Source of the DNA: an uncultured Pseudomonadota bacterium
GTDB taxonomy: Bacteria > Pseudomonadota > Gammaproteobacteria > Natronospirales > REEB76
NCBI GenBank assembly: GCA_963774895.1
Contig: CAVZGN010000001.1
Location: 450,419 to 514,418, forward strand
Direction of reading: 5' to 3'
Length of the DNA: 64,000 nt
Part shown: piece after piece, positions 9,537-27,180 of the stretch
Layout of the letters: each line of letters starts with the position of its first letter
Position numbering within the stretch: the first letter of the stretch is position 1
Position numbers and translations under genes: made by a program
The notes under the pieces: model-generated
Told to the model about the DNA's origin: nothing
Databases searched by the model: none
What the model saw: the letters and a program-made list of their open reading frames with translations, nothing else

Positions 9537-10637
<1,101 letters not shown>

Positions 10638-10743: not shown

Positions 10744-11505
10744 ATGCCCATGTTTGAGACCACCAAGGAAAAAGTCGAATTGACCGAACGCCAGATCTCG
10801 GAACTGGATGCCGGATTTGGCGCGTTTCTTCATGCCGGCTATTGCACCTGGGAATCCACCACTGATACTGACAATAGCATCCTGTCTTTCGCAGTGCATT
10901 GTCCCGAGCAGCTTCCTCTGGACTTGACTCTGATGCTTGGGGAAGTGATTACTAATCTCCGTTCAGTACTTGATTATGCAACGAGTGAACTGATCGGCAT
11001 CGACACTAAAACAGAAGATGTCAGGATGGTCTTCCCCACAGCCGCGAAACAGGCGGAATACGTGGCGCGTTGTCGCGATATCAAGACGCGGCGTGACGAT
11101 ACCAAGGCCTTCTTCATGAATCTGGCCGTGTATCCCGATGGCGCTGGAAAGCTGCTATATGCACTGGATCAGCTGGACGCCACCGGCAAACACACGGTAT
11201 TAACCCCTGTCGTCGGTATCGCCAAGATCGGTCCGGTCAAGGTTCTTAATTCGGATGGTAGCTTGGCTTCGACGGCTGCTAGCATGGATTGCTCGATGGA
11301 AATCGATGGGCGCACCCGATTGGTGAATCTGAGTGCCGGTAAGTCCGTTGAGATCGATGTAAACGCTAAACCCACATTTGATGTATTTTTCGGTGATGTC
11401 GGGGCATTCAAGTTCCAGCGAATCGTTCCAACACTCCAGATCCTGCTAACCACGGTGAAAGATACGGTACGGCGAATGGAGCGATTCGTGACTACGAGAT
11501 TCTAG
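10744..11505 (+). CDS. hypothetical protein (253 aa), no recognised family
   Basis: ATG 10744 (MPMFETTKEK...) avoids overlap with obg. The gene is AT-richer than its neighbours and has no signal peptide or TM. Confidence 0.55.
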   Translation: MPMFETTKEKVELTERQISELDAGFGAFLHAGYCTWESTTDTDNSILSFAVHCPEQLPLDLTLMLGEVITNLRSVLDYATSELIGIDTKTEDVRMVFPTAAKQAEYVARCRDIKTRRDDTKAFFMNLAVYPDGAGKLLYALDQLDATGKHTVLTPVVGIAKIGPVKVLNSDGSLASTAASMDCSMEIDGRTRLVNLSAGKSVEIDVNAKPTFDVFFGDVGAFKFQRIVPTLQILLTTVKDTVRRMERFVTTRF

Positions 11506-11667
11506 ATATGACATATAGATTTTCGAAATTGCTATAAAAAAAGCTCAAGTTGAGCAGCTGCTTCCAGCCAGAAACGGACATTCAACCGAGTCAGATATTC
11601 GCGAGATTACGGTGAAGCCTCGAACCAGGTAATTTTTAGAATTAAGGAAAAGGTAACGCAATAAAGG

Positions 11668-11910
11668 ATGGCTGATTTAACGATACGCATGCTGAACATT
11701 CTCATATATTTTGTAGCCGGTAGAATCATGACCATGGCCATAGTGCTATTGGAGGAAAGCGGTTATCGCCTCCTTTCGGGATTGGCAACTCTAATGCGGG
11801 CGTTCACACTCGTAGCATACTTCTTCGTGGGCGAATCGCGGGGCGGCAAGGCTCTGAACCAACATGCTGAATTGATGCTAGTGGACACGCTCGCCGCGTG
11901 GGTGCCTTAA
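11668..11910 (+). CDS. possible small membrane protein
   Basis: 80-aa ORF with two hydrophobic stretches and an aaggaaaagg region upstream. Coding evidence is weak. Confidence 0.3.
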   Translation: MADLTIRMLNILIYFVAGRIMTMAIVLLEESGYRLLSGLATLMRAFTLVAYFFVGESRGGKALNQHAELMLVDTLAAWVP

Positions 11911-12150
11911 ATGCTCGCGGTCATCGTGCTGGCGCCGCGTCTTTCTACTTACAAGACGATCGGCGCAGGTTTCCTTGTATTTTTATTTGTGCGGTGGTGT
12001 TCCTATCGCTTACCCAACACTTTCGCTGGTTTCGCTAGGGGCAAGGACGCATCCATGCCATCCGACATCAGCGCCAAGGTCGTCCCGTAAGGGGTGGTGG
12101 ATGACGCCCCTACAGTGTTCTAATCGGGTCATCGCCCCCAAACGGCCGGT

Positions 12151-13401
12151 ATGTCCACGCCGCCCGTGACACTGTTCCTGGTCTGCGTCGCTGCCATCTT
12201 CCTCATCGGCACTTTCGGCGAGTTTGTATTCTCGCGCACGAAAGTGCCGGACGTAATCTGGTTGATCCTGGTAGGCATCCTCCTCGGCCCCGTGCTGGGG
12301 CTGGCGACCCGCGCCCAGCTCCTGAGTGTCGCACCGTATTTCTCCGTCATCACCCTGGTGTTCGTCCTTTTCGAGGGTGGTAGTCGGCTGGACCTGGTAG
12401 AACTTTATCGGGCCGCACCGCGTTCGGTGTTTCTTTCACTGCTCACATTCCTATTTTCCACTGTGGCTGCCATGCTGGCGGTCAGGCTGATGGTCGAGGC
12501 TGGGATGCTGCCGGCGGCCTGGTCCTGGCGCCAGGAACTCCTCACCGGCGCGATTGTCGGGGGCACCAGTCCCATCGTCATCATGGCTGCCATCGCTCGG
12601 GTCGGGATGCCGTCCCGGGTGGCCAACCTGCTGAGCCTGGAATCAGCCCTGAGCGACGTGCTTTGTATTGTCGCAGTCAGCTCGCTAATCGAATTCTTCA
12701 AGTTCGGCCCCGCGGCAGACGCCGCACCGTGGCTCCCCCTAGTGCGTTCGCTCGGTCTCGGCGTGGTCCTCGGCGCTGTCGCCGGCGCGCTTTGGTTGAT
12801 GCTGCTCAACTGGCTGAAAGAGAACGAGCACGCGTACCCCATCACGCTTGCGGCCTTGCTGCTGCTATACGTGGCGGTGGAGGCGGCTGGCGGTGCCGGC
12901 GCTCTGGGAGTGCTGGCCTTCGCCGTGGTGGTGGGCAATGCCGGCCACATCGGCCGCATGGTCAAGGTTTCCACGGAACTTGGGATGCATGATGACCTGC
13001 GTGGCTTCCATAGCCAGATGGTCTTCATCATCAAATCGTTCTTTTTTACCTTCATCGGCGCCATGCTCGGCCCGCCTTGGGGCCTGGCCGTGGCCGGTGT
13101 GTTGCTGGCAGTGGTGCTTCTGGTGGCGCGTTTCCCCGGCGCTTGGCTCGCGATGTTGAGATCACCGTTCAGCCCGCAAGAAAGGCGTATCGTATTTCTC
13201 AGCCTGCCGCGCGGTGTGGCGGCAGGCGTGCTGGCCACCCTGCCGGTGGCCGCAGGCCTTGCCGGCATGGAAGAATTGCCGGTAGTGGTATTTGCTTGTG
13301 TGTTCGGTACTCTCATCATCTTCGCTGTGGGCTTCCCGCTGGTGATGCGCGGCAGCTCGGGAGCGACAGATGCTGAGCCTGCAGGCGATGCCCATGTGTA
13401 G
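12151..13401 (+). CDS. cation:proton antiporter (Na+/H+ exchanger family)
   Basis: 416 aa and polytopic. The N-terminus ...IGTFGEFVFSRTKVPDVIWLILVGILLGP is typical of CPA-type exchangers. Confidence 0.85.
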   Translation: MSTPPVTLFLVCVAAIFLIGTFGEFVFSRTKVPDVIWLILVGILLGPVLGLATRAQLLSVAPYFSVITLVFVLFEGGSRLDLVELYRAAPRSVFLSLLTFLFSTVAAMLAVRLMVEAGMLPAAWSWRQELLTGAIVGGTSPIVIMAAIARVGMPSRVANLLSLESALSDVLCIVAVSSLIEFFKFGPAADAAPWLPLVRSLGLGVVLGAVAGALWLMLLNWLKENEHAYPITLAALLLLYVAVEAAGGAGALGVLAFAVVVGNAGHIGRMVKVSTELGMHDDLRGFHSQMVFIIKSFFFTFIGAMLGPPWGLAVAGVLLAVVLLVARFPGAWLAMLRSPFSPQERRIVFLSLPRGVAAGVLATLPVAAGLAGMEELPVVVFACVFGTLIIFAVGFPLVMRGSSGATDAEPAGDAHV

Positions 13402-13424
13402 ATTTTTGATTTGCGCGGAAGACC

Positions 13425-14672
13425 GCTTTGGGTTGCGATTTCAACTGATCGACGCAACACGCTAGATTCTGCGCGAGCAGAAGGAGGTGTTGCAAGTGAC
13501 ATACAGAACTCGGATTTATTACACCGAACGCCAGAAGGCCCTGATGTGGGAGCGCTGGCAGAAAGGGGAATCTCTCCAACAGATCGCCCAGCTGTTTGAC
13601 CGGTCGCACGGATCGGTCCACGGCATACTGGTTAAGACCGGCGGCATTCGCCCGAGGCCGCGCCGGCGTTCGCGTTTAGCGCTAAGCTTGGCGGAGCGTG
13701 AAGAGCTATCGCGCGCCGTAGCACAGGGCTTCTCATGTCGCTCGATCGCGCGCTCCCTGGGACGCGCACCCTCGAGTGTCAGCCGTGAGCTTAAACGCAA
13801 TGGCGGCCCGGGGTGCTACCGGGCGAGCCAGGCCGACCAGAGTGCTTGGGACCGGGGCCGCCGCCCCAAGGTCTGCAAGCTGGTCGAGCATCGAGCCTTG
13901 GCGCGCCTGGTGACCGACAAGCTGCAGTCATCCTGGTCGCCGGAGCAGATCGCCGGATGGCTGAAGCGGCGCTTTCCCGATGATGAGGGTCTGCAGGTGT
14001 CACACGAGACGATCTATAAGACTCTGTTCATCCAGGCGCGCGGGGCCTTGAAAAAAGAGCTGTTAGAGCACTTGCGGCGTAGCCGTGCCATGCGCCGTTC
14101 ACGCCATCACACCCAGAAGACCGATGACCATGGCCGGATCCTGAACGCCGTGTCGATCCGCGAGCGTCCGGCCACCGTCGAAGACCGTGCGGTGCCGGGC
14201 CACTGGGAAGGCGACTTGCTGTTCGGCAACCAGCGCAGCCAGATTGCCACCCTGGTCGAACGGCATACCCGCTATGTCATGCTGGTGAAAGTCGCGAGCA
14301 AAGATACCGAGACCGTCATCAGCGCATTGATCAAACATGCCCATAAGCTGCCGCAGGAGCTCTATAAATCCTTGACCTGGGATCGCGGCAAAGAGATGGC
14401 CGACCACCAACGCTTCACCCTGGCGACGGATGTCAAAGTCTACTTCTGTGATCCGCAAAATCCCTGGCAACGTGGCAGTAACGAGAATACCAACGGGCTA
14501 CTGAGGCAGTACTTTCCTAAGGGCACCGATCTGTCGGTGTACTCGCAGGCTAAACTCAACGCAGTCGCCAGGCAGTTAAATGAGCGGCCGAGGAAGACGC
14601 TGAACTATGAAACGCCGGCTGAACGCTTTGGCCAATGTGTTGCGTCGATCAGTTGAAACCGCAGTCGGAAGC
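13425..14672 (+). mobile_element. IS30-family insertion sequence, copy A
   Basis: The 1248-bp unit is shared with 23129-24376 at an offset of 9704. All track ORFs inside are identical in both copies (389, 93, 70, 123 aa). The imperfect terminal IRs are gctttgggttgcgatttcaactgatcgacgcaacac and, as reverse complement, gcttccgactgcggtttcaactgatcgacgcaacac. The inner 26 nt resemble the IS30 IR as I remember it. Confidence 0.9.
13496..14656 (+). CDS. IS30-family DDE transposase
   Basis: There is an N-terminal HTH region, and PGHWEGDLLFG plus the downstream D/E residues are typical of IS30 transposases. The aaggagg SD at 13481-13487 favours GTG 13496; the track ORF starts at 13487. Confidence 0.9.
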   Translation: MTYRTRIYYTERQKALMWERWQKGESLQQIAQLFDRSHGSVHGILVKTGGIRPRPRRRSRLALSLAEREELSRAVAQGFSCRSIARSLGRAPSSVSRELKRNGGPGCYRASQADQSAWDRGRRPKVCKLVEHRALARLVTDKLQSSWSPEQIAGWLKRRFPDDEGLQVSHETIYKTLFIQARGALKKELLEHLRRSRAMRRSRHHTQKTDDHGRILNAVSIRERPATVEDRAVPGHWEGDLLFGNQRSQIATLVERHTRYVMLVKVASKDTETVISALIKHAHKLPQELYKSLTWDRGKEMADHQRFTLATDVKVYFCDPQNPWQRGSNENTNGLLRQYFPKGTDLSVYSQAKLNAVARQLNERPRKTLNYETPAERFGQCVASIS

Positions 14673-14730
14673 GGTCGTTCGCAGCGAAACGTTATCAGAC
14701 CTGTTTCTCCAATCGAATGCATTGACGTTC

Positions 14731-16251
14731 TCATCCAAGTACAGATGATGCCATGGAATCCACTCGGTTATTGGTCCTGAATTGATTCGCACTTTCTTGA
14801 TCACCTCCTGCCGCACTGAGCAGGTACATGGCAGCGTACGCACGCCAGGGCTTCCAGGTTTCAGCACGTCGTAGTATTGCCTCTCGCAATGGGTTAGTGC
14901 TAATTATAGGCTGTAGTACCCGATGTCCAATCGGAAACGCGTCCGGGTCATTAAGTGCACGCATCGCAATATATTGAATAGTAGGTTCTTCAATATCTTT
15001 GATGTCTTTTAATTTGGCTAGGAGTTGGTCAAGAGATGTGTCAGCCCCAGACATGGTCACGGCCTGCGCAGCGGTCCGAATTGTGCGTGCACATGATGAC
15101 GGTAGGCATGAAAGACGGGCGCTGGCCAGTGTCTTAGTTTGCGGAAAAATACGGGAAAACTCCTGCGTATCAGAAGATGCCATTGGTTCACCAAAACACT
15201 CGACCAATCGACCTGCCAGCATCCCGGCCTCGTGCAAAGGGAAGTGCTGACTTAAAATTGCATGCACGATGAGCTCAAAACTATCCCAAGTTCCAGGTAT
15301 CCGCATTCCTGGATGACGTCGTAATAGGTGTACCAGTAAGCGATCGCGACCTAAGTGCTTGCAGATAACTTCCGGATCTGCAGCCAAGTCAAACATCGCA
15401 CGCACCCGTGTGACGATCTGAAGCAAACATTCCGGTTGAGGGAATCGGATGTGAGCTCGCAACATATGGGTGCCGGCCATCGGTCTTACTTCTAGAATTC
15501 CATGATGATCGTGGATTGCGATACTGCGGCGATAAATGCCCTTCGTTATTGATTCCACCCCGGGCGTCAAACTAGCGGTAAGGTATGTCAGCAGTGAGTT
15601 CCAATTGTACGGCGGGCGGTAAGCCAGATGAAATACATACTCGTCTGGGACTCGAGAGTGAAGGCCCATGCGCCGCAATTCGGAAGGTGGGCGCCCATAG
15701 CATTTATGAAAAACCTCATTAAATCGCCGGATACTTCTGAAACCAGAAGCCATCGCGATTTGGGCCATAGACAGATTGGTATCACTAATTAACTGCTTGG
15801 CAAAATGCAGTCGTCGCGTCTGGGCAACAGTCGTGGGTAATGCCCCCAAATGCCGCAAAAACAGTCGTGACAGGTGGCGCGCACTCATTCCAAGGCGGTT
15901 TGCGAGCATTTCTACATTACCTTCATCCAATGCACCCTCGGCAATGAGTCGCAGGCCGCGGTTTACGGTGGCCGATGTTCCATTCCAGGCAGGTGTGCCT
16001 GGCGCCACTTCCGGGCGGCAGCGCAGACAGGGGCGAAATCCGGCTTGGGTCGCCGCCGCGGCCGAGGGGAAATACCGCACATGCACACGTTTTGCATGTG
16101 GCGAGGGGCAAATAGGTCTGCAATAGATGCCTGTGGACGTGACTCCAATAAACACACGTCCGTCAAAACGCGCATCCCGATTGAGCCGCGCTTGCTCGCA
16201 TGTTTGTTCGTCTAGTAGTTCCACTTGGCAATCCAAGCTTAGAGAACACAC
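14731..16251 (-). CDS. Ada-type Zn-finger / AraC HTH / AlkA (DNA-3-methyladenine glycosylase II) fusion protein
   Basis: The N-terminus DARFDGRVFIGVTSTGIYCRPICPS...GFRPCLRCRPE is an Ada Zn-binding domain. The AraC HTH is MSARHLSRLF...IAMASGFRSIRRFNEVF. The C-terminus is HhH-GPD-like (IQYIAMRALNDPDAFP). Confidence 0.8.
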   Translation of the reverse strand: MCSLSLDCQVELLDEQTCEQARLNRDARFDGRVFIGVTSTGIYCRPICPSPHAKRVHVRYFPSAAAATQAGFRPCLRCRPEVAPGTPAWNGTSATVNRGLRLIAEGALDEGNVEMLANRLGMSARHLSRLFLRHLGALPTTVAQTRRLHFAKQLISDTNLSMAQIAMASGFRSIRRFNEVFHKCYGRPPSELRRMGLHSRVPDEYVFHLAYRPPYNWNSLLTYLTASLTPGVESITKGIYRRSIAIHDHHGILEVRPMAGTHMLRAHIRFPQPECLLQIVTRVRAMFDLAADPEVICKHLGRDRLLVHLLRRHPGMRIPGTWDSFELIVHAILSQHFPLHEAGMLAGRLVECFGEPMASSDTQEFSRIFPQTKTLASARLSCLPSSCARTIRTAAQAVTMSGADTSLDQLLAKLKDIKDIEEPTIQYIAMRALNDPDAFPIGHRVLQPIISTNPLREAILRRAETWKPWRAYAAMYLLSAAGGDQESANQFRTNNRVDSMASSVLG

Positions 16252-16605
16252 TGGTCATTCTACTGACATAGATTCTTCTTCGGCTAGCCGTTTTCAGACG
16301 TTATTGTCTTTGGTTCGTTGTTTCGCCTAGACACTATGGTTTGCACTGTTGAATGTTGGGGCGAAGGTGGAAACATTGCCCGCAGGCACGTCTCACATAT
16401 GAGTGACCATGAGAGACCGTAATTTGATACACATTGAGGTCCTAATACCGCCAGCAATTAAATGCGTTCGGCCTAGTATTTTGTCGCAGGGTGACGAATG
16501 TGCTCTCCGAATTGAAATGCATCGCATACGTAACCTGTCAGTGCTCGCGATCCCACCCTGGAGTCAATTCAAAGTGTTGAGTTGGATTTCGTAAAGGAGA
16601 AAATT

Positions 16606-17835
16606 ATGAATATCAAATTTATATCCAGACTATGTTTGATGTCGGCCGCCCTGCTATTCGCTCGCAGCGCCTATGCTGGCAATTCCGAAAACACGCTTTA
16701 TCAAGTAATTAACCTCGGAAATCCGCTTGGTGGCGCTTTGAGCCAAGGCACCAGCAATAATCAGCCGGGACAGGTTCTTGGATTTTCCACCTTTCCGAGT
16801 ACCTACATCATGCACGCGGAGCTATGGCGGGATAACTCTGCGCATGATCTTGGCACGCTGGGCGGACCCAACAGCGCGGTGGCTTGGCCGAATCGTAACG
16901 ATCACGGCGTGATCGTGGGCATATCCGAGACTACCAACCTGCAGCCTCTGGGTGAGCTATGGAGCTGTTACCTGGCGGTTTTCTACTACGCCGACGGGCA
17001 TGTGTGCCGCGGATTTGTTTGGCAGGATGGGGTGATGACCACGCTTCCCACCTTGGGAGGCGACAACGGCTTTGCGACTGGTGTCAATAACAGCGATCAG
17101 ATTGTGGGCTGGGCCGAAAATACCAATCATGATCCCACCTGCGGCGAGTACACGAATAATAACCAGGTACTGCAATTCGAGGCTGTCATGTGGACGCGAC
17201 AGAATGGTCACTATCAAGCGAGCGAACTACCCCCCTATCCCGGCGATATGGACGGTGCGGCCACGGCAATCAATCAGGAAGGCCAAGTCGTGGGTATTAC
17301 AGGCATCTGTGACGGCGCAATCGGAGGCGCAACGGCTGAGCATATGGTGATGTGGCAGAACGGGAGAGTGGTCCGTGAGTTGCCGACGTTGGGCGGTGCT
17401 TACTGGAATACACCCATGGACATTAACAACCGCGGAAACGTCGTTGGATTTTCCGATCTTCCCGGCGATGGGCCGACGATTGGTGACGCGAATTTCCAGG
17501 CCTTTTTCTGGTCTACAAAGCCTTTCATTTGCAACGACAAGCGAATCACGGGCACTTGCAACCTGGGTGCGCTTCCGGGCGACAGCATAAGTGAAGCCCT
17601 AGGAGTCAATGATCGGGACCAGGTCGTGGGCGTGTCATTTCCTTCGGGTCACGCATTCATTTGGCAAGACGGCGTGATGACGGATATCAATACCCTGCTG
17701 GCGCCGGGTACCACGTTGGTACTCACCGATGCCCAGGATATCAACGACCAAGGTGAGATTACCGGTCAAGCATATGACTCCAATACCGGCACAACTGTCG
17801 CGTTTAAAGCGATTCCCACGCGTACGGCACATTGA
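16606..17835 (+). CDS. secreted HAF-repeat protein
   Basis: ATG 16606 follows an aaggaga SD, and the signal peptide is ...ARSAYA. Repeated units (H/G)A(F/V)xWxxG...LxTLGG...A.xINxxGQVVG are present, including HAFIWQDGVMTDINTL. Confidence 0.75.
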   Translation: MNIKFISRLCLMSAALLFARSAYAGNSENTLYQVINLGNPLGGALSQGTSNNQPGQVLGFSTFPSTYIMHAELWRDNSAHDLGTLGGPNSAVAWPNRNDHGVIVGISETTNLQPLGELWSCYLAVFYYADGHVCRGFVWQDGVMTTLPTLGGDNGFATGVNNSDQIVGWAENTNHDPTCGEYTNNNQVLQFEAVMWTRQNGHYQASELPPYPGDMDGAATAINQEGQVVGITGICDGAIGGATAEHMVMWQNGRVVRELPTLGGAYWNTPMDINNRGNVVGFSDLPGDGPTIGDANFQAFFWSTKPFICNDKRITGTCNLGALPGDSISEALGVNDRDQVVGVSFPSGHAFIWQDGVMTDINTLLAPGTTLVLTDAQDINDQGEITGQAYDSNTGTTVAFKAIPTRTAH

Positions 17836-17986
17836 GAACCCGGCTTAGACCGCGCCTCGCTGACGTCGAGTCGGAACGCGAGGAAGTGTGGTAATCAATG
17901 CCATAGCATGGGGGCAGGATAATATCCTGTCCCCATTTTTAAGATTGAACATAGAAATGAAATCCCCTCAAAATCGGAGATCAGTC

Positions 17987-18430
17987 ATGAGTACGAACTT
18001 TCAGCGCGGAATACTGCTGGGTATTGCGGCGATTCTCTTGTTCGCTGCATTGACGATCAGCGCTTCCACTTCGCCCTTTGTAGGCTCTATCATGACGGAG
18101 CACGCTGCATTGTATCTGAATATAGATCAGCGAGCCCCCCAAATCTGGCCTGTGGAGATCTGGGCCGTGGGCGGAGTTCTGAGCAACCGGTCGAACCAAG
18201 GGGTGCTGTGGATCCGGCCCGGTGTCTACACTTTCACGCTGCGTGTCAGCCAGGCAGTGAACCTAGCCGACGTGCCAGGGCTCGCCCGTTCTGCAGGTTA
18301 TAGTCGGACTGAACATGAACTGAAGCTGCAGGCACAAATGGGCAAAGCGTATTACATCGGCGCCAAATTCGAAGCCTCTGGCGTCTGGAAACCGGTGGTA
18401 TGGAAGGTCCGGGACATCAGCGCTAAGTGA
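17987..18430 (+). CDS. hypothetical membrane-anchored/secreted protein (147 aa)
   Basis: A ggaga SD lies 6 nt before ATG 17987. The N-terminal hydrophobic helix is GILLGIAAILLFAALTISA. Confidence 0.5.
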   Translation: MSTNFQRGILLGIAAILLFAALTISASTSPFVGSIMTEHAALYLNIDQRAPQIWPVEIWAVGGVLSNRSNQGVLWIRPGVYTFTLRVSQAVNLADVPGLARSAGYSRTEHELKLQAQMGKAYYIGAKFEASGVWKPVVWKVRDISAK

Positions 18431-18645
18431 GCGCTACTGCAAAGCTAAAACTTAGCTATCGAATTTATATAAAGATTTCTATGAAAAACTAGAAATGAAT
18501 AAGTTTTATTTCAAATAATGATCAGAGTTAACTTAATGGAGATGCGCTATAGATTATATAATTATTAATGTTCGAAAATTCGAAAGCTGACGAGCAGCAT
18601 TTATAACAGTACCAAACAATGTCCACACTAAAACTGGGAGATAGC

Positions 18646-19155
18646 ATGTGTAAATGGTTGCTCACGATCATCCTGCTGGGCCTCAGTTTGCCTGTCTTGG
18701 CAGTAACATCAACAGCTTGTACGGCTCCGGAATACAACCGACTCAATTTTTGGCTCGGAGACTGGGATACATACGAAGCAGACGGCAAGGGACCATCGGA
18801 AGCCAGCAATCACGTTACATCCATCTTGGGCGGCTGTGCCATCTTGGAACGTTACGAAGGGACTGACGGTCACATCGGGGAGAGCATGACTGTCTATGAC
18901 GCTTCACGGAACGTCTGGCACCAGACCTGGGTTACGAATCAAGGTCATCTCTTAGTATTGGAAGGGCACTTCAACGGCTTTATGCTCACGCTGGAAGGCT
19001 CTGAGATGAGTAATAATCACAAGCAAGAATTGATCCGTGGGACATGGTTACCGCAACTGGATGGGGTGCGCGAGACGGCGTATATATCCAAAGATGGCGG
19101 CAAAACTTGGAGTATAGATTTTGACATCCTTTTTAAGCCGCATCATGGAAAGTAA
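18646..19155 (+). CDS. secreted hypothetical protein (DUF1579-like pattern)
   Basis: A gggaga SD precedes ATG 18646, and a signal peptide is present. The pattern FWLGDWD...LGGCAILERYEG...MTVYD...WHQTWV resembles DUF1579-type beta-barrel proteins from memory. Confidence 0.5.
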   Translation: MCKWLLTIILLGLSLPVLAVTSTACTAPEYNRLNFWLGDWDTYEADGKGPSEASNHVTSILGGCAILERYEGTDGHIGESMTVYDASRNVWHQTWVTNQGHLLVLEGHFNGFMLTLEGSEMSNNHKQELIRGTWLPQLDGVRETAYISKDGGKTWSIDFDILFKPHHGK

Positions 19156-19706
19156 CAGTAGATTAATATTTACTAACCCTCACAGTGCATTAAATTCTTG
19201 TGATCTCATATTCGAAGGCTACTTTTTGAATGACTGCTACGGGTCGACTGCAGAACTTGAAGGAGTGAATCACCGATGCCGGATATTAAGTGCTGCATCC
19301 GGCCATAAGCAGCCGCTCGGGTTTTTGCACGTTGCCAAAATTATTGTGTCTGCGGTAATAAGCGAAGTCCAATTGGCCGAATTTGACCGTATGGGCTTCC
19401 GCGAGCCGCGCTGCCTAGTGAAGCAATTCCGAGCTTCTTCTTCCAGTGCCAACTTTCTACTAAGCGTTTGAGCGGTCAACGCATTTTGGCGTCCGTGCGA
19501 CTGCCACTTGCTACGACGCGTTTAAAGCCTGCGCTAAAAACGCAAATCTGCGACTTAATATTCGGATATACCTGTCGAATGTCTTCTACGCTGCTGAATC
19601 TGATTGCTTTCTATGTTAGGGGCCGGTCGCCTAGTAGACACGTGTAGAGCGTGGAGTATATTGAATTTGGACAGCAAGAGGTCGCGATACAAGGTCGTCT
19701 GTACTA

Positions 19707-22187
19707 ATGGTTGCGCCCAATATAATGTTAATCAAAGCCAGATTAACCTTCGATCGCATCCGCGACACTTGGATAAAATTTCCAGGGCATCTCCTGACCC
19801 TCGTCGCGATCTTCATTCTTGTGTTCCTCACAGTCCTCGTCATCTGTTATGCCGCGATCACCGTGCAGTCCGGCGTACGCGCATATGTAGCTGGCGAGGG
19901 ACAGTGGTCGAAATCGGAGAAGGATGCCTATATATATCTGTCGCGTTACGTCGACACCGGCGATGAGCGGTACTTTCGCCTCTTCCGTGAGCAGATGGCG
20001 GTACCAATAGGCGATCACGACGCCCGTCTTGCCATGCTCGTTCAAAATTTGGACTGGAAGGCGGCTACCGATGGTTTAATTCGTGGGCGTAATAGCCCGG
20101 CGGATATCCCAGTGATGATTCGCATGTTCCGCTACGCAGGTCGCATGCCATACATGGCGGACGCGATCGCTATCTGGACCAAAGCGGATCCCATTATGCT
20201 GCAATTGGCGGCCTTAGGGGAGCAAATACATGTGCTGCGCGCCAGCCAGCCCCGCAATCTGGGCCAGTTGCGCCAGCTGCGTCTGCGGGCATTCGCAATC
20301 AATTCCGAGTTGCGGCCAATGGAAGACGATTTCTCCGCCTCTCTTGCGTTAGGCGCTCAATTTATCAACAAGCTGCTGCTCGCTGTGGTCGCCTTAGGTG
20401 CTTTACTAGCCATGTTACTGGAGTTCTTGCTGGTGCGGCGTATCGTTCTCACGCTGCATGATTCGGAAACGAGATTCCGTGGGATGTTCGAGCAAGCAGC
20501 CGTCGGGCTGGCTCATATCTCGTTGGACGGCGTCATACTGCGTGTCAATGACAAGTATTGTGCGATCACAGGTCATAAGTACGATAACCTGATTGACCAT
20601 AGTTTTCTGCCCGTACTCAGTTCGAAAGATGCAGGCGACACTTGGCTGCATTGTGGCCGTCTGCTGCGCGTTGAAGAGCAGGAATACACCACCAGACTGC
20701 AGTTGGAGAAATCGGACCAGACGCGCTGGGCACGCATAACGCTGACCCTGGTGAAGAACACGAAAGGCGAACCCCTGTATTTCTTGAACGTGCTGGAAGA
20801 CATATCCAGGGAGCGGCGCCTCGGCGAACAACTGTCCTATCTGGCAACCCACGACGCACTTACGCAATTGGTGAACAGAGTCGAATATGAAAAACGCGTC
20901 AGCGTTGCTCTCGGCAAGGTAGCAAGCGGCGGAGACGCGGGGGCAGTGTTTTACCTGGATCTTGATCAATTTAAGGTGATCAACGACACCCTTGGACACA
21001 TGGCGGGTGATGAGCTGCTGCGACAGTTGGGCATGGAACTTAAGAACCGATTGCGGGCCGGCGATACACTGGCAAGGCTTGGGGGCGATGAATTCGGAGT
21101 ACTGCTGGAGGGCTGCCCGATCAGCGCGGCCAGCAACATCGCGGAAGGTATGCGCCGCACCGTGGACGAGATGGGTTTCGTTTGGAAAGGACGTGAATAT
21201 CGGGTCGGAGTCAGCATCGGCGTGGTTCCCGTGAAACCGGACACTGAGTCGGTACAGCAACTCCTGAGCGATGCGGACGAAGCCTGTTACATTGCCAAGG
21301 ATAAAGGCCGTAATTTGGTCTATATGCACGAGCCGAGCAGCGCACGTTCTATGCAACGGCAGCATGAGGTGCAGTCGGTGAACCGGTTACGTGAAGCGCT
21401 CGATGGTGAAGGATTGTTCCTCATGTTCCAAAGTATCCAACCGCTGCTTCTCACGCACACTACTGGCCTTCATTTCGAGATGCTGCTGCGCATGCGGCAA
21501 CCCTCGGGTGAGATCGTGACACCGGCATCCTTCTTGCCAGTGGCTGAAAGATACAACTTGGCTTACCGTGTGGATGAATGGGTGGTACGCAAAACTCTCG
21601 GCTGGCTATCCGATCACCTCAACGAAATTCACAAAATCATGCTTTGCAGCATAAACCTCTCTGCGCAGTCCCTAAATAACAGCCGCTTCCTGGAGTTCCT
21701 CGAATCAGAAATTTATCGCAGTGGTGTTCCGACTAACAAATTGTGCTTTGAACTTACGGAGATGAGCGCTGTGGCAGACATCGCCGTTGCCACCAAATTT
21801 ATCAACAGGATTCGTGACAAAGGCTGCCGCTTCGCGCTGGATGACTTTGGCGGTGGCATGTCCTCGTTCGCCCACCTGCATGCTCTGCCGGTGGATATAA
21901 TCAAGATCGATGGCTCGTTCATTCGGGACATGGACCGAGATTCCGTCAATCGTGCGTTGGTGTCGTCCATTAACGACATCAGCCACATACCAGGCAAGCT
22001 CACGATTGGTGAATTTGTGGAGACCGACTCCATCCTTGAAGCTGCGCGCGAGCTCCAGCTGGACTATGCCCAAGGCTATGCCGTAGCCAAGCCCAGCGAC
22101 CTCTCGGATCTCTTCAATCGAGTCGCGAAAGAGAGCCTCACACTTGAAGGCCCACTGTCAGCGCCAGGAAAGAATCCGGCGACCTAA
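19707..22187 (+). CDS. membrane-anchored PAS-GGDEF-EAL c-di-GMP signalling protein
   Basis: 826 aa. GGDEFGVLL marks the GGDEF domain. The EAL domain shows CFELTEMSAV, DDFGGGMSS and KIDGSFIRD. A PAS-like segment lies after the TM region. Confidence 0.9.
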   Translation: MVAPNIMLIKARLTFDRIRDTWIKFPGHLLTLVAIFILVFLTVLVICYAAITVQSGVRAYVAGEGQWSKSEKDAYIYLSRYVDTGDERYFRLFREQMAVPIGDHDARLAMLVQNLDWKAATDGLIRGRNSPADIPVMIRMFRYAGRMPYMADAIAIWTKADPIMLQLAALGEQIHVLRASQPRNLGQLRQLRLRAFAINSELRPMEDDFSASLALGAQFINKLLLAVVALGALLAMLLEFLLVRRIVLTLHDSETRFRGMFEQAAVGLAHISLDGVILRVNDKYCAITGHKYDNLIDHSFLPVLSSKDAGDTWLHCGRLLRVEEQEYTTRLQLEKSDQTRWARITLTLVKNTKGEPLYFLNVLEDISRERRLGEQLSYLATHDALTQLVNRVEYEKRVSVALGKVASGGDAGAVFYLDLDQFKVINDTLGHMAGDELLRQLGMELKNRLRAGDTLARLGGDEFGVLLEGCPISAASNIAEGMRRTVDEMGFVWKGREYRVGVSIGVVPVKPDTESVQQLLSDADEACYIAKDKGRNLVYMHEPSSARSMQRQHEVQSVNRLREALDGEGLFLMFQSIQPLLLTHTTGLHFEMLLRMRQPSGEIVTPASFLPVAERYNLAYRVDEWVVRKTLGWLSDHLNEIHKIMLCSINLSAQSLNNSRFLEFLESEIYRSGVPTNKLCFELTEMSAVADIAVATKFINRIRDKGCRFALDDFGGGMSSFAHLHALPVDIIKIDGSFIRDMDRDSVNRALVSSINDISHIPGKLTIGEFVETDSILEAARELQLDYAQGYAVAKPSDLSDLFNRVAKESLTLEGPLSAPGKNPAT

Positions 22188-22504
22188 TCAAACTGCCCGT
22201 TCACGCGTCATGCATGGAGAACTCGTGCTGACACGCTCAGTTCACCCAGGGCTTCCAGCACTAGCTGTGTGTCGGGGCTTCAGCGGTTTGGGTGTTTAGG
22301 GATCGCCCGCGCGGTGCCCAGGTGGGACATGCGGATACGTAAAATACGCAAGTAGATAAAGCTACCACTTAAATTAGCATAGACCCATGTTATCTGCTCA
22401 TTTACATAAACGACCGCAATGGGTCGGGAGCAGAAGTGGAGGGAGTAGAATCTCATGGATGCTGGAAGTACTACTGGAATATTACCTACAAAGGAGACCA
22501 AATT

Positions 22505-22978
22505 ATGCGCCGTCATATCATATTCAATTCAATCTTGCTTAGCCTGACGATCCTGCTGACTGTTGCTGCCCCATCTTCCGCGCTGGCAAAGAAAAGCGCC
22601 GATACGAAACAACCTTTTCAGACACAGATGAGCCTAAACTTGGCAGACGGTATCAGCGGAGCTAACGCTGCCGTTACTATTCCATCTGGCAAGCGGCTAG
22701 TAATCCAATATGCCTCTGCATGGGCTCAGACACCGAGTGGACAGACAGTGACGTTCACGATCCAGACGATGCTCAATGATGCCACGAAATTCACACCACA
22801 TTACCTGCCCGCTGTCCAACAAAATTCAGATGCCATCAATGAGATTTTCATTGCTGGCACGGCTGTCCACCTTTACGCTGATGCACCCCAGGTGATGCTG
22901 CGAGTCGATCGTGGTTCGGTTATCACCGGTGCAGTGATAGCGTACATTTCTATATCCGGATACCTCATAGACCAATAA
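22505..22978 (+). CDS. secreted hypothetical protein (157 aa)
   Basis: An aaaggaga SD precedes ATG 22505, and the signal peptide is ...APSSALA. I recognise no family. Confidence 0.5.
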   Translation: MRRHIIFNSILLSLTILLTVAAPSSALAKKSADTKQPFQTQMSLNLADGISGANAAVTIPSGKRLVIQYASAWAQTPSGQTVTFTIQTMLNDATKFTPHYLPAVQQNSDAINEIFIAGTAVHLYADAPQVMLRVDRGSVITGAVIAYISISGYLIDQ

Positions 22979-23128
22979 ATATTTATAGACGATGAGTGTT
23001 GTTTTTAGGTGCATCCAAGGACGCAGGGGGTCACGAAGTGGCGCTGAATTTTCATAATGATTGTATTTGAGGCGAGTTTGTTGGTGGTGCAGAAATAATT
23101 ATTACTGGGTCAAAATCGGTTAATGGCT

Positions 23129-24376
23129 GCTTTGGGTTGCGATTTCAACTGATCGACGCAACACGCTAGATTCTGCGCGAGCAGAAGGAGGTGTTGCAAG
23201 TGACATACAGAACTCGGATTTATTACACCGAACGCCAGAAGGCCCTGATGTGGGAGCGCTGGCAGAAAGGGGAATCTCTCCAACAGATCGCCCAGCTGTT
23301 TGACCGGTCGCACGGATCGGTCCACGGCATACTGGTTAAGACCGGCGGCATTCGCCCGAGGCCGCGCCGGCGTTCGCGTTTAGCGCTAAGCTTGGCGGAG
23401 CGTGAAGAGCTATCGCGCGCCGTAGCACAGGGCTTCTCATGTCGCTCGATCGCGCGCTCCCTGGGACGCGCACCCTCGAGTGTCAGCCGTGAGCTTAAAC
23501 GCAATGGCGGCCCGGGGTGCTACCGGGCGAGCCAGGCCGACCAGAGTGCTTGGGACCGGGGCCGCCGCCCCAAGGTCTGCAAGCTGGTCGAGCATCGAGC
23601 CTTGGCGCGCCTGGTGACCGACAAGCTGCAGTCATCCTGGTCGCCGGAGCAGATCGCCGGATGGCTGAAGCGGCGCTTTCCCGATGATGAGGGTCTGCAG
23701 GTGTCACACGAGACGATCTATAAGACTCTGTTCATCCAGGCGCGCGGGGCCTTGAAAAAAGAGCTGTTAGAGCACTTGCGGCGTAGCCGTGCCATGCGCC
23801 GTTCACGCCATCACACCCAGAAGACCGATGACCATGGCCGGATCCTGAACGCCGTGTCGATCCGCGAGCGTCCGGCCACCGTCGAAGACCGTGCGGTGCC
23901 GGGCCACTGGGAAGGCGACTTGCTGTTCGGCAACCAGCGCAGCCAGATTGCCACCCTGGTCGAACGGCATACCCGCTATGTCATGCTGGTGAAAGTCGCG
24001 AGCAAAGATACCGAGACCGTCATCAGCGCATTGATCAAACATGCCCATAAGCTGCCGCAGGAGCTCTATAAATCCTTGACCTGGGATCGCGGCAAAGAGA
24101 TGGCCGACCACCAACGCTTCACCCTGGCGACGGATGTCAAAGTCTACTTCTGTGATCCGCAAAATCCCTGGCAACGTGGCAGTAACGAGAATACCAACGG
24201 GCTACTGAGGCAGTACTTTCCTAAGGGCACCGATCTGTCGGTGTACTCGCAGGCTAAACTCAACGCAGTCGCCAGGCAGTTAAATGAGCGGCCGAGGAAG
24301 ACGCTGAACTATGAAACGCCGGCTGAACGCTTTGGCCAATGTGTTGCGTCGATCAGTTGAAACCGCAGTCGGAAGC
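23129..24376 (+). mobile_element. IS30-family insertion sequence, copy B (identical to copy A)
   Basis: See copy A. The flanks diverge immediately outside 23129 and 24376. Confidence 0.9.
23200..24360 (+). CDS. IS30-family DDE transposase
   Basis: The translation is identical to that of 13496..14656. Confidence 0.9.
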   Translation: MTYRTRIYYTERQKALMWERWQKGESLQQIAQLFDRSHGSVHGILVKTGGIRPRPRRRSRLALSLAEREELSRAVAQGFSCRSIARSLGRAPSSVSRELKRNGGPGCYRASQADQSAWDRGRRPKVCKLVEHRALARLVTDKLQSSWSPEQIAGWLKRRFPDDEGLQVSHETIYKTLFIQARGALKKELLEHLRRSRAMRRSRHHTQKTDDHGRILNAVSIRERPATVEDRAVPGHWEGDLLFGNQRSQIATLVERHTRYVMLVKVASKDTETVISALIKHAHKLPQELYKSLTWDRGKEMADHQRFTLATDVKVYFCDPQNPWQRGSNENTNGLLRQYFPKGTDLSVYSQAKLNAVARQLNERPRKTLNYETPAERFGQCVASIS

Positions 24377-24406
24377 AGTCCTTCGTATTTAAGGCAAAAC
24401 ACACAT

Positions 24407-24431
24407 AAAAGCCGGTCATTGACCGGTTTTT
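24407..24431. terminator. bidirectional hairpin terminator
   Basis: aaaagccggtc-att-gaccggttttt, downstream of the minus-strand DUF2059 gene. Confidence 0.5.
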
Positions 24432-24453
24432 ATATTGGCATGAACCGTCGGGC

Positions 24454-24987
24454 TTAATGCGGAGGCGCACCCGCAGAATCATCGAGCTTGATGCCTTCCT
24501 GCTGGAAGCGCGCGCGGATGCGTTTCACCAGTTCCGGTGCCAACACGTCTTTACCCCACTGCTCGCCATCCTGCATGCTGGCTTGGGCGATCGCGGGGTT
24601 GTTCTGGATGATCTTCTGACCGAGCGGCGTCTTGTAGAAGGCGATCATTTGGCGCACGTCGGCGTCGGTGTAGTACTTGGCATAGATCGGCACAAGCATC
24701 TCCACCAGCTGCTTGTTGATGGCCGGATCCGCCAGCATGTTGCTGGTCTCTTCCTTGATGATGGTGAAGGCCTTGGGCGTGATGTCGGGATGGGAGGCCT
24801 GCAGGTTGTTGATGATCTGCTGAGCGATGGCATCACCGAACAGCTGTCCCATATGTGTGCCGCCGGTCATGTCGATGAGCTGCAGGATGTCTGTGCGCAG
24901 GGGTGCGGGTATCTTGTCGGTTTCGGCGGCGAAAGCGGATGCCGGCAGCGTGAATAGAAGTGTGAAAAGCAGAATCCCTGATTTCAT
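24454..24987 (-). CDS. periplasmic DUF2059-like protein
   Basis: The internal Met gives the signal peptide MKSGILLFTLLFTLPASAFA. The C-terminal YAKYYTDADVRQMIAFYKTPLGQKII pattern is typical of DUF2059 from memory. Confidence 0.65.
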   Translation of the reverse strand: MKSGILLFTLLFTLPASAFAAETDKIPAPLRTDILQLIDMTGGTHMGQLFGDAIAQQIINNLQASHPDITPKAFTIIKEETSNMLADPAINKQLVEMLVPIYAKYYTDADVRQMIAFYKTPLGQKIIQNNPAIAQASMQDGEQWGKDVLAPELVKRIRARFQQEGIKLDDSAGAPPH

Positions 24988-25064
24988 GGTCGTACCCGCC
25001 GGACTATTAAATAGGTATGGGAGCATACGAATCAACTATGGCACGTTGAACCACAGTCGGCAAT

Positions 25065-25091
25065 AAAAAAGCCGGCACTGGGGCCGGCTTT
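25065..25091 (-). terminator. rho-independent terminator of rpsT
   Basis: agccggc-actggg-gccggct, with a T-tract on the minus strand (a65-a70 on plus). Confidence 0.6.
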
Positions 25092-25116
25092 GGATATGGG
25101 ATAGGATACGCAGGTC

Positions 25117-25383
25117 TCAGGCTTTGAGCGCGCGGATGCGTTCGTTCAGGCGGCTCTTGTGGCGCGCGGCCTTGTTGTGATGAATCAGGCCCTTGTCGGC
25201 GATGCGGTCGATGACCGGCACGGCCTCCTTGTAGGCGGCTTCGGCCTCGGTTTTCTTGCCTTCGGCCGTGAGTTTCACCACTTTCTTGATGTAGCTGCGC
25301 ACCATGGAACGCAGGGCGGCGTTGTGCTCGCGATGCACCACCGACTGGCGGGCGCGCTTCTTGGATTGCTTGGTATTGGCCAA
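25117..25383 (-). CDS. rpsT: 30S ribosomal protein S20
   Basis: A TTG start gives (M)ANTKQSKKRARQSVVHREHNAALRS..., the canonical S20 sequence. The longer track ORF is an upstream extension. Confidence 0.9.
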   Translation of the reverse strand: MANTKQSKKRARQSVVHREHNAALRSMVRSYIKKVVKLTAEGKKTEAEAAYKEAVPVIDRIADKGLIHHNKAARHKSRLNERIRALKA

Positions 25384-25576
25384 GTTACAGACTCCTGAAA
25401 CTACTGGTTGGCCGCCCCGAAGGCGGCTGGAAAGGTTGCGTACTATACGGATTTGGGCCGGCCCGCGCAACGCGGTTGAAGGTTGAAGCACGCCTGCGCC
25501 GGTTTGCGTGGCAGCGACGGCGGAAGGCCGGTATCATGCAGGCCACAGAATAGTTTGGTTTTTGGGATCGCGTTCC

Positions 25577-27142
25577 ATGTCTCGCGCACTCTTCAAGGCC
25601 ACCTCCCTGGTGGGAGGTATGACCCTCATCTCGCGCATCCTGGGCTTCGCCCGGGACATGGTGCTGGCGCGCTATTTTGGCGCCGGTACCGTCATGGACG
25701 CATTCTTCGTGGCCTTCAAGATTCCCAACTTCATGCGTCGCACCTTCGGCGAGGGCGCCTTCTCGCTGGCTTTCGTGCCGGTGATCTCGGAATACAAGAC
25801 CACGCGCGAGCATCATGAAGTCCAGGAACTGGCGGACCAGGTAGCCGGCACTCTGGGTCTGGTGCTGGTCGGGATCACCGTTATCGGCGTGATTGCCGCA
25901 CCGGTGCTGGTGTGGATCTTCGCGCCCGGGTTCAGCGTCAACCAGAGCAAGTACGACCTGACGGTCGCCATGGTGCGGGTGACGTTTCCCTATCTGTTGT
26001 TCATCTCGCTGACGGCCTTCGCCGGCGGCATCCTCAACACCTATGGCAAATTCGGCGTGCCGGCCTTCACGCCGGTAATCCTTAATATAGTGATGATCGC
26101 CGCCGCCATCTGGCTGGCACCGCATATGGCCAACCCCGGCATGGCGCTGGCCTGGGGCGTGTTCATCGCCGGCGTGCTGCAACTGCTATTTCAGGTGCCG
26201 TACCTGTTCAGGCTCAAACTCATGCCGCGTCCGAAACTCTCGGAGGGCCACGAGGCGGTGAAGCGCATCATGAAACTCATGCTGCCGGCGCTGTTCGGTT
26301 CCTCGGTGTCGCAGATCAACATGGTGGTGGACACGGTGATCGCATCGTTCCTGGCCACTGGCAGCGTCAGCTGGTTGTACTATTCCGACCGCCTGATGGA
26401 ATTCCCGCTGGGGGTATTCTCCATCGCGCTGGGCACCGTGATCCTGCCGAACATGGCGCAGCACTTCGCGGCGAAATCTGACGCCGGGTTCTCGGCGACA
26501 CTGGACTGGGCGCTGCGGCTCACGGCGGTGGTGGTGGTGCCGGCGGCGGTCGGTCTGTTGTGCCTGTCCGGGCCAGTGCTGATCACGCTATTCCATTACG
26601 GCCAATTCAATACATTGGATGCGCGCATGGCTACCGTCAGCCTATCGGCATATGCCTTCGGCCTTTTGGGATTCACACTGGTGAAAGTCTTCGCACCTGG
26701 ATTCTATGCGCGCCAGGATACGCGCACCCCGGTCAAGATCGGCGTGATCTCGGTGGTCGCCAACATCGTGCTCAACATCATGATTACCATCCCCTGGGCC
26801 ATGAGCGGCGTCAGCGCGCCGCACGCAGGACTGGCGCTGTCCACATCACTGGCGGCGTTCATCAATGCCTGGCTGCTGTACCGCGGTCTGCGGCGTCTGG
26901 GCGTATATAGCCCGGCCCCGGGTTGGAAGCCTTTGGCATGGCGGGTGCTGATCGCCAACTTGGCGATGGGTGGGCTGTTGTGGCTGGGCAGCGGCAATCT
27001 GGATGTGTGGCTGGGCCGTAACGCCATGCACCGCGGACTGTGGCTGGCGTTCTGGATACTGGCAGCGATGGCAATGTATTTTCTGGTGCTGTTCCTCAGC
27101 GGTTTTCGCCTGCGGCATCTGCGGCGGGTGCCAGCCGCCTAG
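25577..27142 (+). CDS. murJ: lipid II flippase MurJ (MviN)
   Basis: ATG 25577 gives MSRALFKATSLVGGMTLISRILGFARD, the canonical MurJ N-terminus. The protein is polytopic. Confidence 0.9.
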   Translation: MSRALFKATSLVGGMTLISRILGFARDMVLARYFGAGTVMDAFFVAFKIPNFMRRTFGEGAFSLAFVPVISEYKTTREHHEVQELADQVAGTLGLVLVGITVIGVIAAPVLVWIFAPGFSVNQSKYDLTVAMVRVTFPYLLFISLTAFAGGILNTYGKFGVPAFTPVILNIVMIAAAIWLAPHMANPGMALAWGVFIAGVLQLLFQVPYLFRLKLMPRPKLSEGHEAVKRIMKLMLPALFGSSVSQINMVVDTVIASFLATGSVSWLYYSDRLMEFPLGVFSIALGTVILPNMAQHFAAKSDAGFSATLDWALRLTAVVVVPAAVGLLCLSGPVLITLFHYGQFNTLDARMATVSLSAYAFGLLGFTLVKVFAPGFYARQDTRTPVKIGVISVVANIVLNIMITIPWAMSGVSAPHAGLALSTSLAAFINAWLLYRGLRRLGVYSPAPGWKPLAWRVLIANLAMGGLLWLGSGNLDVWLGRNAMHRGLWLAFWILAAMAMYFLVLFLSGFRLRHLRRVPAA

Positions 27143-27180
27143 ATGGGCACATACCTTATATATAATCACGGGCACTGGTC

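Follow-up and report, generated by a model that had tools for sequence, protein, structure and literature searches.

The stretch of DNA analysed here, referred to as the window, comprises 64,000 nucleotides of contig CAVZGN010000001.1 (assembly GCA_963774895.1), from an uncultured gammaproteobacterium (Pseudomonadota). It contains two identical insertion sequences (IS) of the IS30 family, which stand in the same orientation on either side of an 8.5-kb segment, and each of which lies at the exact centre of a palindrome of approximately 32 bp. The two copies and the genes between them are listed below (ORF, open reading frame; IRL and IRR, left and right inverted repeat; aa, amino acids; HTH, helix-turn-helix).

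13434-14663, + strand: IS copy 1, 1,230 bp, IS30 family; IRL 13434-13460, IRR 14637-14663
13496-14656, + strand: transposase ORF of copy 1, 386 aa in the public assemblies; alternative GTG start at 13487 (386/389 aa)
14664-23137: bracketed segment (cargo), 8,474 bp; also recovered as one short-read contig, L014
14731-16221, - strand: Ada-AlkA fusion, with Ada_Zn_binding, AraC HTH and AlkA_N domains
16582-17835, + strand: HAF-repeat protein (HAF_rpt, TIGR02913, 108 bits)
17888-18430, 18619-19155 and 22505-22978, + strand: small secreted-type ORFs with signal-like N-termini and no family match
19707-22187, + strand: PAS-GGDEF-EAL protein
23138-24367, + strand: IS copy 2, with the same sequence and orientation as copy 1; IRL 23138-23164, IRR 24341-24367
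23200-24360, + strand: transposase ORF of copy 2

The list of cargo genes given in the first-pass annotation of this DNA (an Ada-AlkA fusion, a HAF-repeat protein, three small secreted proteins and a PAS-GGDEF-EAL protein) agrees with the domains found. The cargo had also been described as richer in AT than the backbone: its GC content (0.517) is lower than that of the whole window (0.552), but the difference is weak, values of 0.62-0.65 being reached only in the adjacent ribosomal and murJ genes, and GC content was rejected as a sign of foreign origin.

Extent, family and recent activity of the insertion sequence

The two copies form part of a direct repeat of 1,248 bp (13425-14672 and 23129-24376), which was confirmed to be exact, with 0 mismatches, and beyond both ends of which the sequence diverges. 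No third copy of this repeat was found within the 64-kb window. The whole 1,248-bp unit had been taken for the IS itself; comparison with nine other contigs encoding the identical transposase (P0001) set the IS proper at 1,230 bp. All 11 copies share this length, and their differing flanks begin at the immediately adjacent base. The outer 9 bp on each side of the repeat (GCTTTGGGT on the left, GTCGGAAGC on the right) are thus flanking target and not IS.

The element starts with TGCGATTTCAAC and finishes with GTTGAAACCGCA. Its inverted repeats are 27 bp long and complementary at 26 of the 27 positions; all four are intact in the window. A search of the window with the inverted repeats gave just these four, and no IRR-NN-IRL junction. 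The transposase contains the Pfam domains HTH_38 (68 bits) and rve (52.8 bits) and matches the NCBIfam equivalog NF033563 (transpos_IS30) with 296 bits, against a cutoff of 80, the models of other IS families scoring below their own cutoffs. Domains, length, inverted repeats and a 2-bp target-site duplication all fit the IS30 family, to which the element belongs, as had been annotated.

The duplication is GT at both window copies (GT-IS-GT). It was overlooked in the first-pass annotation, which reported no duplications of 2-3 bp, because the IS ends had been placed 9 bp too far out. Other sites of the same IS show AC-IS-AC (contigs L001 and L006) or GC-IS-GC (L003).

The whole 1,230 bp are 100% identical in seven of the nine other contigs with the same transposase, and at least six distinct left flanks of the IS occur among the contigs. 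Wherever copies were seen, they show full or almost full identity, and the IS has therefore been active recently. The perfect identity of the window pair had been attributed to very recent transposition or to gene conversion; recent activity is upheld, but since copies at other loci are also 100% identical, the identity of the pair calls for no special event and gene conversion is not needed. A megablast search of PLSDB plasmids found no near-identical IS, only relatives at the protein level (at most 77% identity).

An assembly or polishing duplication, or gene conversion of old insertions that extended into the 9-bp flanks, would produce perfect identity over 1,248 bp, including 9 non-IS bp on each side. 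We consider either origin exceedingly improbable. Each of the four IS junctions is crossed by, or forms the end of, independent short-read contigs assembled from other samples (L005, L002, L013, L010, L012 and L014), so that the layout is no assembly artefact; other copies, from other loci and other samples, are just as identical; and the 9-bp flanks form the core of a target that is present in 60 unrelated contigs (see below).

Hybrid flanks were observed around the identical IS in the short contigs L002, L004 and L005 (AC-IS-GT, GC-IS-AC and GT-IS-AC). Contig L002 leads from a foreign left flank through the IS to the Ada-AlkA side. These contigs could be chimeric assembly paths through a 1.2-kb repeat or real IS-IS recombinants.

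The palindromic target and its probable recognition

The palindrome split by each copy is represented by two half-sites.

13415-13433: left half-site of copy 1, GCGGAAGACCGCTTTGGGT; the final 2 nt, GT, are the duplication
14664-14682: right half-site of copy 1, GTCGGAAGCGGTCGTTCGC; the initial 2 nt, GT, are the duplication; homologous to relative L160 from 14673 on
23119-23137: left half-site of copy 2, GTTAATGGCTGCTTTGGGT; GT duplication at the end
24368-24386: right half-site of copy 2, GTCGGAAGCAGTCCTTCGT; GT duplication at the start; the conserved DUF2059 terminator (24409-24433) is 22 bp away

Joining 13415-13433 to 14666-14682 rebuilds the target of copy 1 as GCGGAAGACCGCTTTGGGTCGGAAGCGGTCGTTCGC. 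When the IS and one GT are removed, the palindromes read gcggaaGACCGCTT-TGGGTCGG-AAGCGGTCgttcgc for copy 1 and gttaatGGCTGCTT-TGGGTCGG-AAGCAGTCcttcgt for copy 2. Folded as DNA, the rebuilt target of copy 1 gives -11.3 kcal/mol, with a 13-bp stem and an 8-nt loop, and that of copy 2 gives -5.7 kcal/mol.

The degenerate 24-mer of the empty site, GRCYGCTTTGGGTCGGAAGCRGTC, matched 60 metagenome contigs (L015-L074) from soil, freshwater and marine samples, for a chance expectation that we estimate at <0.1. The flanks of these matches are unrelated and the contigs range from 36 to 67% GC, hence the palindrome is not species-specific. Since its 9-bp core recurs in 60 unrelated contigs, the identity of the window flanks is explained without a common origin of the two copies: the shared 9 bp represent the conserved core of a target element that was probably there beforehand, and target specificity accounts for them.

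The consensus of the family, of about 24-32 bp, is gaat-GRCYGCTT-TGGGTCGG-AAGCRGTC-attc. In this form, usually embedded in gaat...attc, it folds as DNA into a 12-bp stem with an 8-nt loop (-13.3 kcal/mol, z -6.7). The metagenome loci contain 97 matches to the family in 303 kb, versus 0 in shuffled sequences, with up to 8 per 10 kb; variant palindromes (e.g. ...GCTTTCGGCCAGAAGC...) lie close by, and several of the palindromes are located just downstream of genes. Short, imperfect, intergenic and capable of forming a stem-loop, they share these features with elements of the REP/BIME type (repetitive extragenic palindromes and bacterial interspersed mosaic elements).

A search of the window with the 16-mer target core, allowing up to 3 mismatches, gave a single weak match at chance level. 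A position weight matrix (PWM) was built from 112 distinct palindromes; shuffled windows mostly score no more than 11 bits with it. Applied to the 64-kb window, it gave six copies, all intergenic, all within 11.5-24.4 kb, that is in one island, and all at module borders. The two occupied sites score far highest, with 47 bits for the rebuilt target of copy 1 and 44.5 bits for that of copy 2, versus about 16-23 bits for four unoccupied, degenerate copies:

11550-11585: unoccupied degenerate palindrome downstream of hyp253; 17.8/19.7 bits; conserved in relatives L075, L076 and L079
19226-19261 and 19285-19320: two unoccupied degenerate palindromes between the sec178 ORF and the GGDEF-EAL gene; 22.5 and 22.1 bits
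22406-22441: unoccupied degenerate palindrome between the GGDEF-EAL gene and the last small ORF; 23.3 bits; also found by the mismatch search

In 1.3 Mb of the loci of relatives, the family is represented by about 0 copies. One copy, aatGCCGGCTTCCGGCCGGAAGCAGTtatt (23.8 bits), was noticed in L085 at 8136-8171, directly after obgE, which lies near DUF2059 there; it places such an element in the obgE intergenic hot spot outside the lineage of the window.

No gene for a recombinase or for a REP-associated transposase (RAYT) recurs beside the palindrome in the 60 metagenome loci; the only recurrent neighbour is an ABC substrate-binding protein, in 5 loci. Rfam searches at gathering thresholds of 10 loci and the window identified no family for the palindrome, the hits being tRNAs, the ALIL pseudoknot and a fluoride riboswitch located elsewhere. 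Such palindromes presumably give rise to spurious small ORFs of the 'MSALGQKRT/KADI' type. Nothing relevant was obtained from a literature search by the palindrome sequence or by its would-be encoded peptide. An association with phages was rejected, a single match having been found in IMG/VR.

In order to examine the target sites of related elements, 12 sites were rebuilt: those of two other copies of this IS, of seven relatives on plasmids (transposases with 64-77% aa identity; Paraburkholderia, Janthinobacterium, Burkholderia, Comamonas, Novosphingobium, Sulfitobacter and Alteromonas) and of three relatives from metagenomes (82-94% aa). Seven of the 12 score at least 19.6 bits, against a maximum of 5.4 in the null set, and the L174 site reaches 33.8 bits. 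Sites of the same IS elsewhere match the consensus CYGCTnnnG-RY-CnnnAGCRG, and in L001 the IS lies inverted in the same palindrome (39 bits). Palindrome targeting thus appears, on these site comparisons, to be a trait of the clade, preserved even where transposases have 64% aa identity, and recognition is probably exerted by the N-terminal HTH of the enzyme. That an IS30 clade should home to a discrete, widely scattered and unannotated palindrome is moderately new; it is a variant of a known theme and introduces no new principle.

The flanks were also considered as relics of older IS ends, as would result from targeting of inverted repeats. This was rejected: local alignment of the four flanks to IRL and IRR gave z <1.5. 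A loose GAA..CCGC motif is common to the IS tips (GAAACCGCA at 13434-13445 and TGCGATTTC at 14652-14663) and the palindrome arms (GAATGACCGC and GCGGTCATTC); it may be linked to the preference for targets resembling inverted repeats that has been reported for IS30.

The island between obgE and DUF2059-rpsT

The IS pair and its cargo lie in a region which the closest relatives of the window lack.

10586-24469: lineage-specific mosaic island, comprising hyp253, hyp80 and a lone Na+/H+ exchanger, followed by the cargo with an IS copy at either end
12151-13401: Na+/H+ exchanger, left of copy 1; a single displaced gene

The closest syntenic relatives were found by scanning species-representative genomes with MurJ. 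Relative L080 (~82% nt identity) aligns to 7690-10585, through obgE, and then directly to 24470-31467 (DUF2059-rpsT-murJ-ribF-ileS). L082, L083 and L085 are likewise without the genes of 10586-24469, and L083 and L085 contain unrelated DNA between obgE and DUF2059. The absence of the cargo between obgE and DUF2059 in syntenic relatives indicates that it is not a long-standing resident of this locus.

A second group of relatives, L075-L079 (~85% nt), has obgE and the following 253-aa ORF in common with the window, and homology then ends at 11553-11561. All synteny ends no more than ~15 nt after the palindrome at 11550-11585, and the first window position covered by the short-read contig L011 is 11553. 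Even two relatives whose ObgE proteins are identical, L076 and L079, part company ~15 nt past this palindrome. In the relatives the palindrome lies at about 11960-12000 (L076), 11295-11335 (L079) and 11960-12000 (L075), at the point of divergence of four genomes.

Part of the cargo was found at another locus. In L160 (GCA_049591615.1, the same metagenome-assembled genome as L075), positions 6215-11589 contain an IS-free Ada-AlkA/HAF block between pth-ychF and MAPEG/HD-GYP genes. Identities at the aa level are 87% for the Ada-AlkA ortholog, 85% for that of the HAF protein, and 71% and 54% for those of two small ORFs; the GGDEF-EAL gene and the last small ORF are absent from this block. Nucleotide homology (82.8%) covers 18456-14672 of the window and ends at the right arm of the copy 1 palindrome. 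At the same position downstream of Ada-AlkA, L160 has a degenerate palindrome, gaatGACTGTGCGTGAATACGGTCgttc, without an IS. The Ada-AlkA/HAF block has changed its chromosomal position between close relatives.

The Na+/H+ exchanger also has a different context in relatives. Its homologs in L170 and L173 (76-79% aa) have a TPR protein on one side and a BNR/sortilin protein on the other, and palindromes are absent there; homology is restricted to the coding region, and the TPR and BNR/sortilin neighbours are missing from the window. The displacement of this gene speaks neither for nor against any particular origin of the IS pair. The island is thus a mosaic in which module borders and palindromes fall together, only two of the palindromes being occupied by the IS.

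This arrangement raises the possibility that the palindromes are themselves sites of recombination or insertion by which modules are shuffled, either attC/pdif-like or, in the manner of REP elements, promoting rearrangement. The island would then have been assembled module by module, and the IS30 clade, a later parasite, would have colonised the two best palindromes. All six window palindromes lie within the 13-kb island at module borders; three of them (11553-11561, 14672 and 24408) are points at which synteny with relatives is lost, and the divergence of L076 and L079 despite their identical ObgE falls at the first. The native contexts of the Na+/H+ exchanger and of the Ada block in relatives are without consensus palindromes, and the density of up to 8 palindromes per 10 kb in some metagenome contigs would also fit. 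With 12-bp inverted arms around an asymmetric 8-bp centre, the palindrome may resemble the core site of a recombinase, for which the layout of loxP, FRT and dif serves as comparison.

We nevertheless judge module shuffling by the palindromes to be unlikely. The 60 metagenome loci share no recombinase (the ABC substrate-binding protein of 5 loci being the recurrent gene), breakpoints fall in intergenic DNA anyway, which is where such elements sit, and there is little covariation at the stem positions: position 4-21 is C-G in 35 and C-A in 32 of the 112 distinct family sequences. The lack of an Rfam family and of a match in the literature weighs neither way. This explanation is compatible with, rather than opposed to, independent insertions of the two IS copies. 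If it holds, the IS30 clade would be to the palindrome what the IS1111-attC elements are to the attC sites of integrons.

A broader and equally improbable proposal is that the palindrome is an undescribed cross-phylum intergenic junction site, on the dyad of which the IS30 clade (64-100% aa; Alpha-, Beta- and Gammaproteobacteria) has specialised. If this were true, palindromes would bound each module of the obgE-rpsT island, an array in which the IS copies would be no more than the most visible tenants.

Origin of the IS pair

The reading that we favour, and to which we give an even chance, is that an IS in recent expansion was directed to its target twice, in independent insertions; a composite transposon would thereby have been 'born'. 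The 1,230-bp IS would recognise the palindrome of ~24-32 bp and, by a staggered cut of 2 bp, insert at the centre of the dyad. At first, two palindromes close to the consensus would have been in place at module borders of the island, and each would then have been struck separately, each insertion giving GT-IS-GT. The outcome would be an identical direct IS pair around 8.5 kb of housekeeping-type genes, matching the 'birth' state of the ancestral Tn6330; RecA-dependent recombination between the copies could delete the segment, form a circle or amplify it. Both the order of these events, palindromes first and two separate insertions after, and a capacity of the IS-cargo-IS structure to move as a unit are what we infer from this arrangement.

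Independent insertions are favoured because unoccupied palindromes bound the neighbouring modules, because the two strongest targets are the occupied ones, because the right arm of the copy 1 palindrome is homologous to IS-free DNA in L160, and because the IS is expanding with a strong site preference. The pairing of half-sites, evaluated by DNA folding, leans slightly the same way: same-copy pairs give -11.3 and -5.7 kcal/mol, cross pairs -6.2 (a structure that is not a hairpin) and -4.1 kcal/mol.

Several observations weigh against two separate insertions. When half-site pairing was assessed by joint base frequencies at six stem positions, no signal was obtained (log likelihood ratio, ln LR, of same-copy versus cross pairing, -0.66). 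GT is the invariant centre of the palindrome and the outer flank pair matches equally well; both duplications being GT at the palindrome centre, they are uninformative and cannot tell two insertions from delivery of a unit. The cargo is absent from this locus in every relative examined (L080, L082, L083 and L085), which implies that the segment arrived in this lineage, and in a close relative the Ada-AlkA/HAF block has another genomic position, between ychF and MAPEG. The IS copies are placed exactly at the two ends of the segment, as delivery by the IS predicts. Exact-protein look-ups with the Na+/H+ exchanger, DUF2059 and the last small ORF found no IS-free allele of either junction in any sample, contigs of the same strain ending at the IS or entering it. 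Nor did any of the 60 metagenome matches to the empty-site 24-mer come from the organism of the window, and no single-IS allele was seen among same-strain contigs from other samples. The hybrid flanks of L002, L004 and L005, if genuine, would mean that recombination between IS copies is ongoing.

The same observations bear on delivery of the 8.5 kb as a unit by the IS, through composite transposition or integration of a circle, which we hold to be possible but doubtful. In one route, IS-cargo-IS would have entered a single palindrome between the Na+/H+ exchanger and the DUF2059 terminator; in the other, a circle made of the cargo and one IS would have integrated via an abutted inverted-repeat junction or by recombination with an IS already resident in the palindrome. 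The outer half-sites (13415-13433 and 24368-24386) would then derive from one recipient palindrome and the inner ones from the donor. Apart from the absence of the cargo from all syntenic relatives at this locus, the IS-free occurrence of part of it at another locus in a close relative and the precise position of the IS copies at the segment ends, delivery as a unit agrees with the GT shared by the outer flanks, and the four intact inverted repeats make the outer ends usable. Hybrid flanks are compatible with IS-IS exchange. Composites of the IS30 family with circular intermediates have been documented (Tn6330; PMC5821093, PMC6349718).

However, neighbouring modules of the island (hyp80 with the Na+/H+ exchanger; the GGDEF-EAL gene and the last small ORF) are also missing in relatives and are bounded by palindromes without IS, and relocation within the island therefore needs no IS pair. 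In addition, cross-paired half-sites form poorer palindromes than same-copy pairs, no second location of the unit was found, and the empty site of the relatives lacks 13.9 kb instead of 10.9 kb.

The anatomy of a composite transposon, consisting of two complete direct copies, usable outer ends and passenger DNA, is present. Among public contigs the IS-cargo-IS unit occurs at this locus only, and the relatives' empty site is short of 13.9 kb and not of the exact 10.9-kb unit. With no second location, exact empty site or informative outer duplication, the structure fails the tests of mobility, and mobilisation as one composite transposon is as unproven as it was on first inspection. The first-pass annotation had held that a separate target duplication at each copy, together with relatives carrying the cargo without IS, would reveal two insertions into resident DNA. 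Each copy does have its own GT duplication and part of the cargo is IS-free in L160, but these findings are not decisive, as GT is invariant and the L160 block occupies another locus.

The best-described parallel is Tn6330 (ISApl1-mcr-1-pap2-ISApl1), which arose from two separate insertions of ISApl1, of the IS30 family, each with its own 2-bp duplication (PMC5821093). Both structures have two complete direct IS30-family copies, 27-bp inverted repeats, 2-bp duplications and chromosomal genes between the copies. Unlike the window unit, known from one site, Tn6330 has been found at ~20 sites with new outer duplications and moves experimentally; its cargo is a resistance gene, in contrast to the 8.5 kb of genes for signalling, repair and surface proteins in the window. 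The targets preferred by ISApl1 are AT-rich, whereas the window IS uses a long GC-rich palindrome, and for this reason GT is the dinucleotide at every inner and outer flank and preserves no record of past events.

IS30 of Escherichia coli reportedly prefers a long (24-bp) palindromic hot-spot consensus (Olasz et al. 1998). The window element shares with it a single transposase, in which two HTH regions at the N-terminus precede a DDE (rve) core, a length of ~1.2 kb, inverted repeats of 26-27 bp, a 2-bp duplication and a location at the centre of a long degenerate palindrome. It differs in the target sequence and in that the target, beyond a statistical consensus, is a discrete element found near-identical across many unrelated genomes. 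Recognition of the target by the H-HTH of the IS30 transposase is cited in PMC1525189.

Insertion into short palindromes is also known for IS that target REP elements (IS1397, ISKpn1, IS621, ISPpu9/10, ISPa11, ISRm22 and ISRm19), several of which insert at the palindrome axis (PMC1525189). According to Tobes and Pareja, these belong to the IS3, IS110, IS4, IS256 and IS5 families; IS30 is not among them (PMC1525189). Hybrid direct repeats between copies of such IS were read as recombination (PMC1525189). As in REP/BIME targeting, a short intergenic palindrome is split at a fixed position and can be rebuilt from the flanks. Classical REPs, however, are species-specific and occur in hundreds of copies, whereas the window palindrome is found in contigs of 36-67% GC and, in the window, in one island.

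A further likeness is to the translocatable units, or pseudo-compound transposons, of the IS26 type: a direct IS pair surrounds a passenger, and homologous recombination would free a one-IS circle able to re-enter at a different copy of the IS. The mechanisms differ, IS6/IS26 elements using replicative and conservative cointegration and IS30 a copy-out-paste-in pathway through abutted inverted repeats, and neither a circle nor a second location was observed for the window unit.

The IS pair is in itself routine. As identical direct copies, the two elements retain the potential for deletion or amplification by homologous recombination that had been annotated, and they single out 8.5 kb (cyclic di-GMP signalling, surface proteins and a regulator/glycosylase of alkylation repair) as a segment that can be deleted or amplified and may be mobile. 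They also call for caution: identical flanks beyond an IS and matching 2-bp duplications can stem purely from target specificity and are then no evidence of co-mobilisation. The targeting result is more useful, as it would extend palindrome-targeted insertion to the IS30 family. The palindrome rule provides a simple predictor of landing sites for this IS30 clade, and the palindrome itself is flagged as a marker of strain-variable junctions.

Two minor observations concern the DNA that follows obgE. The 253-aa ORF (10744-11505, GC 0.516) has no match in Pfam or NCBIfam; it is conserved at ~85% nt identity in one group of relatives and is absent from the L080-type group. In L079, an IS5-family transposase gene (11437-12084; DUF772 and DDE_Tnp_1 domains) lies ~100 nt past the conserved palindrome, at a position where L076 has an AsmA-family gene.

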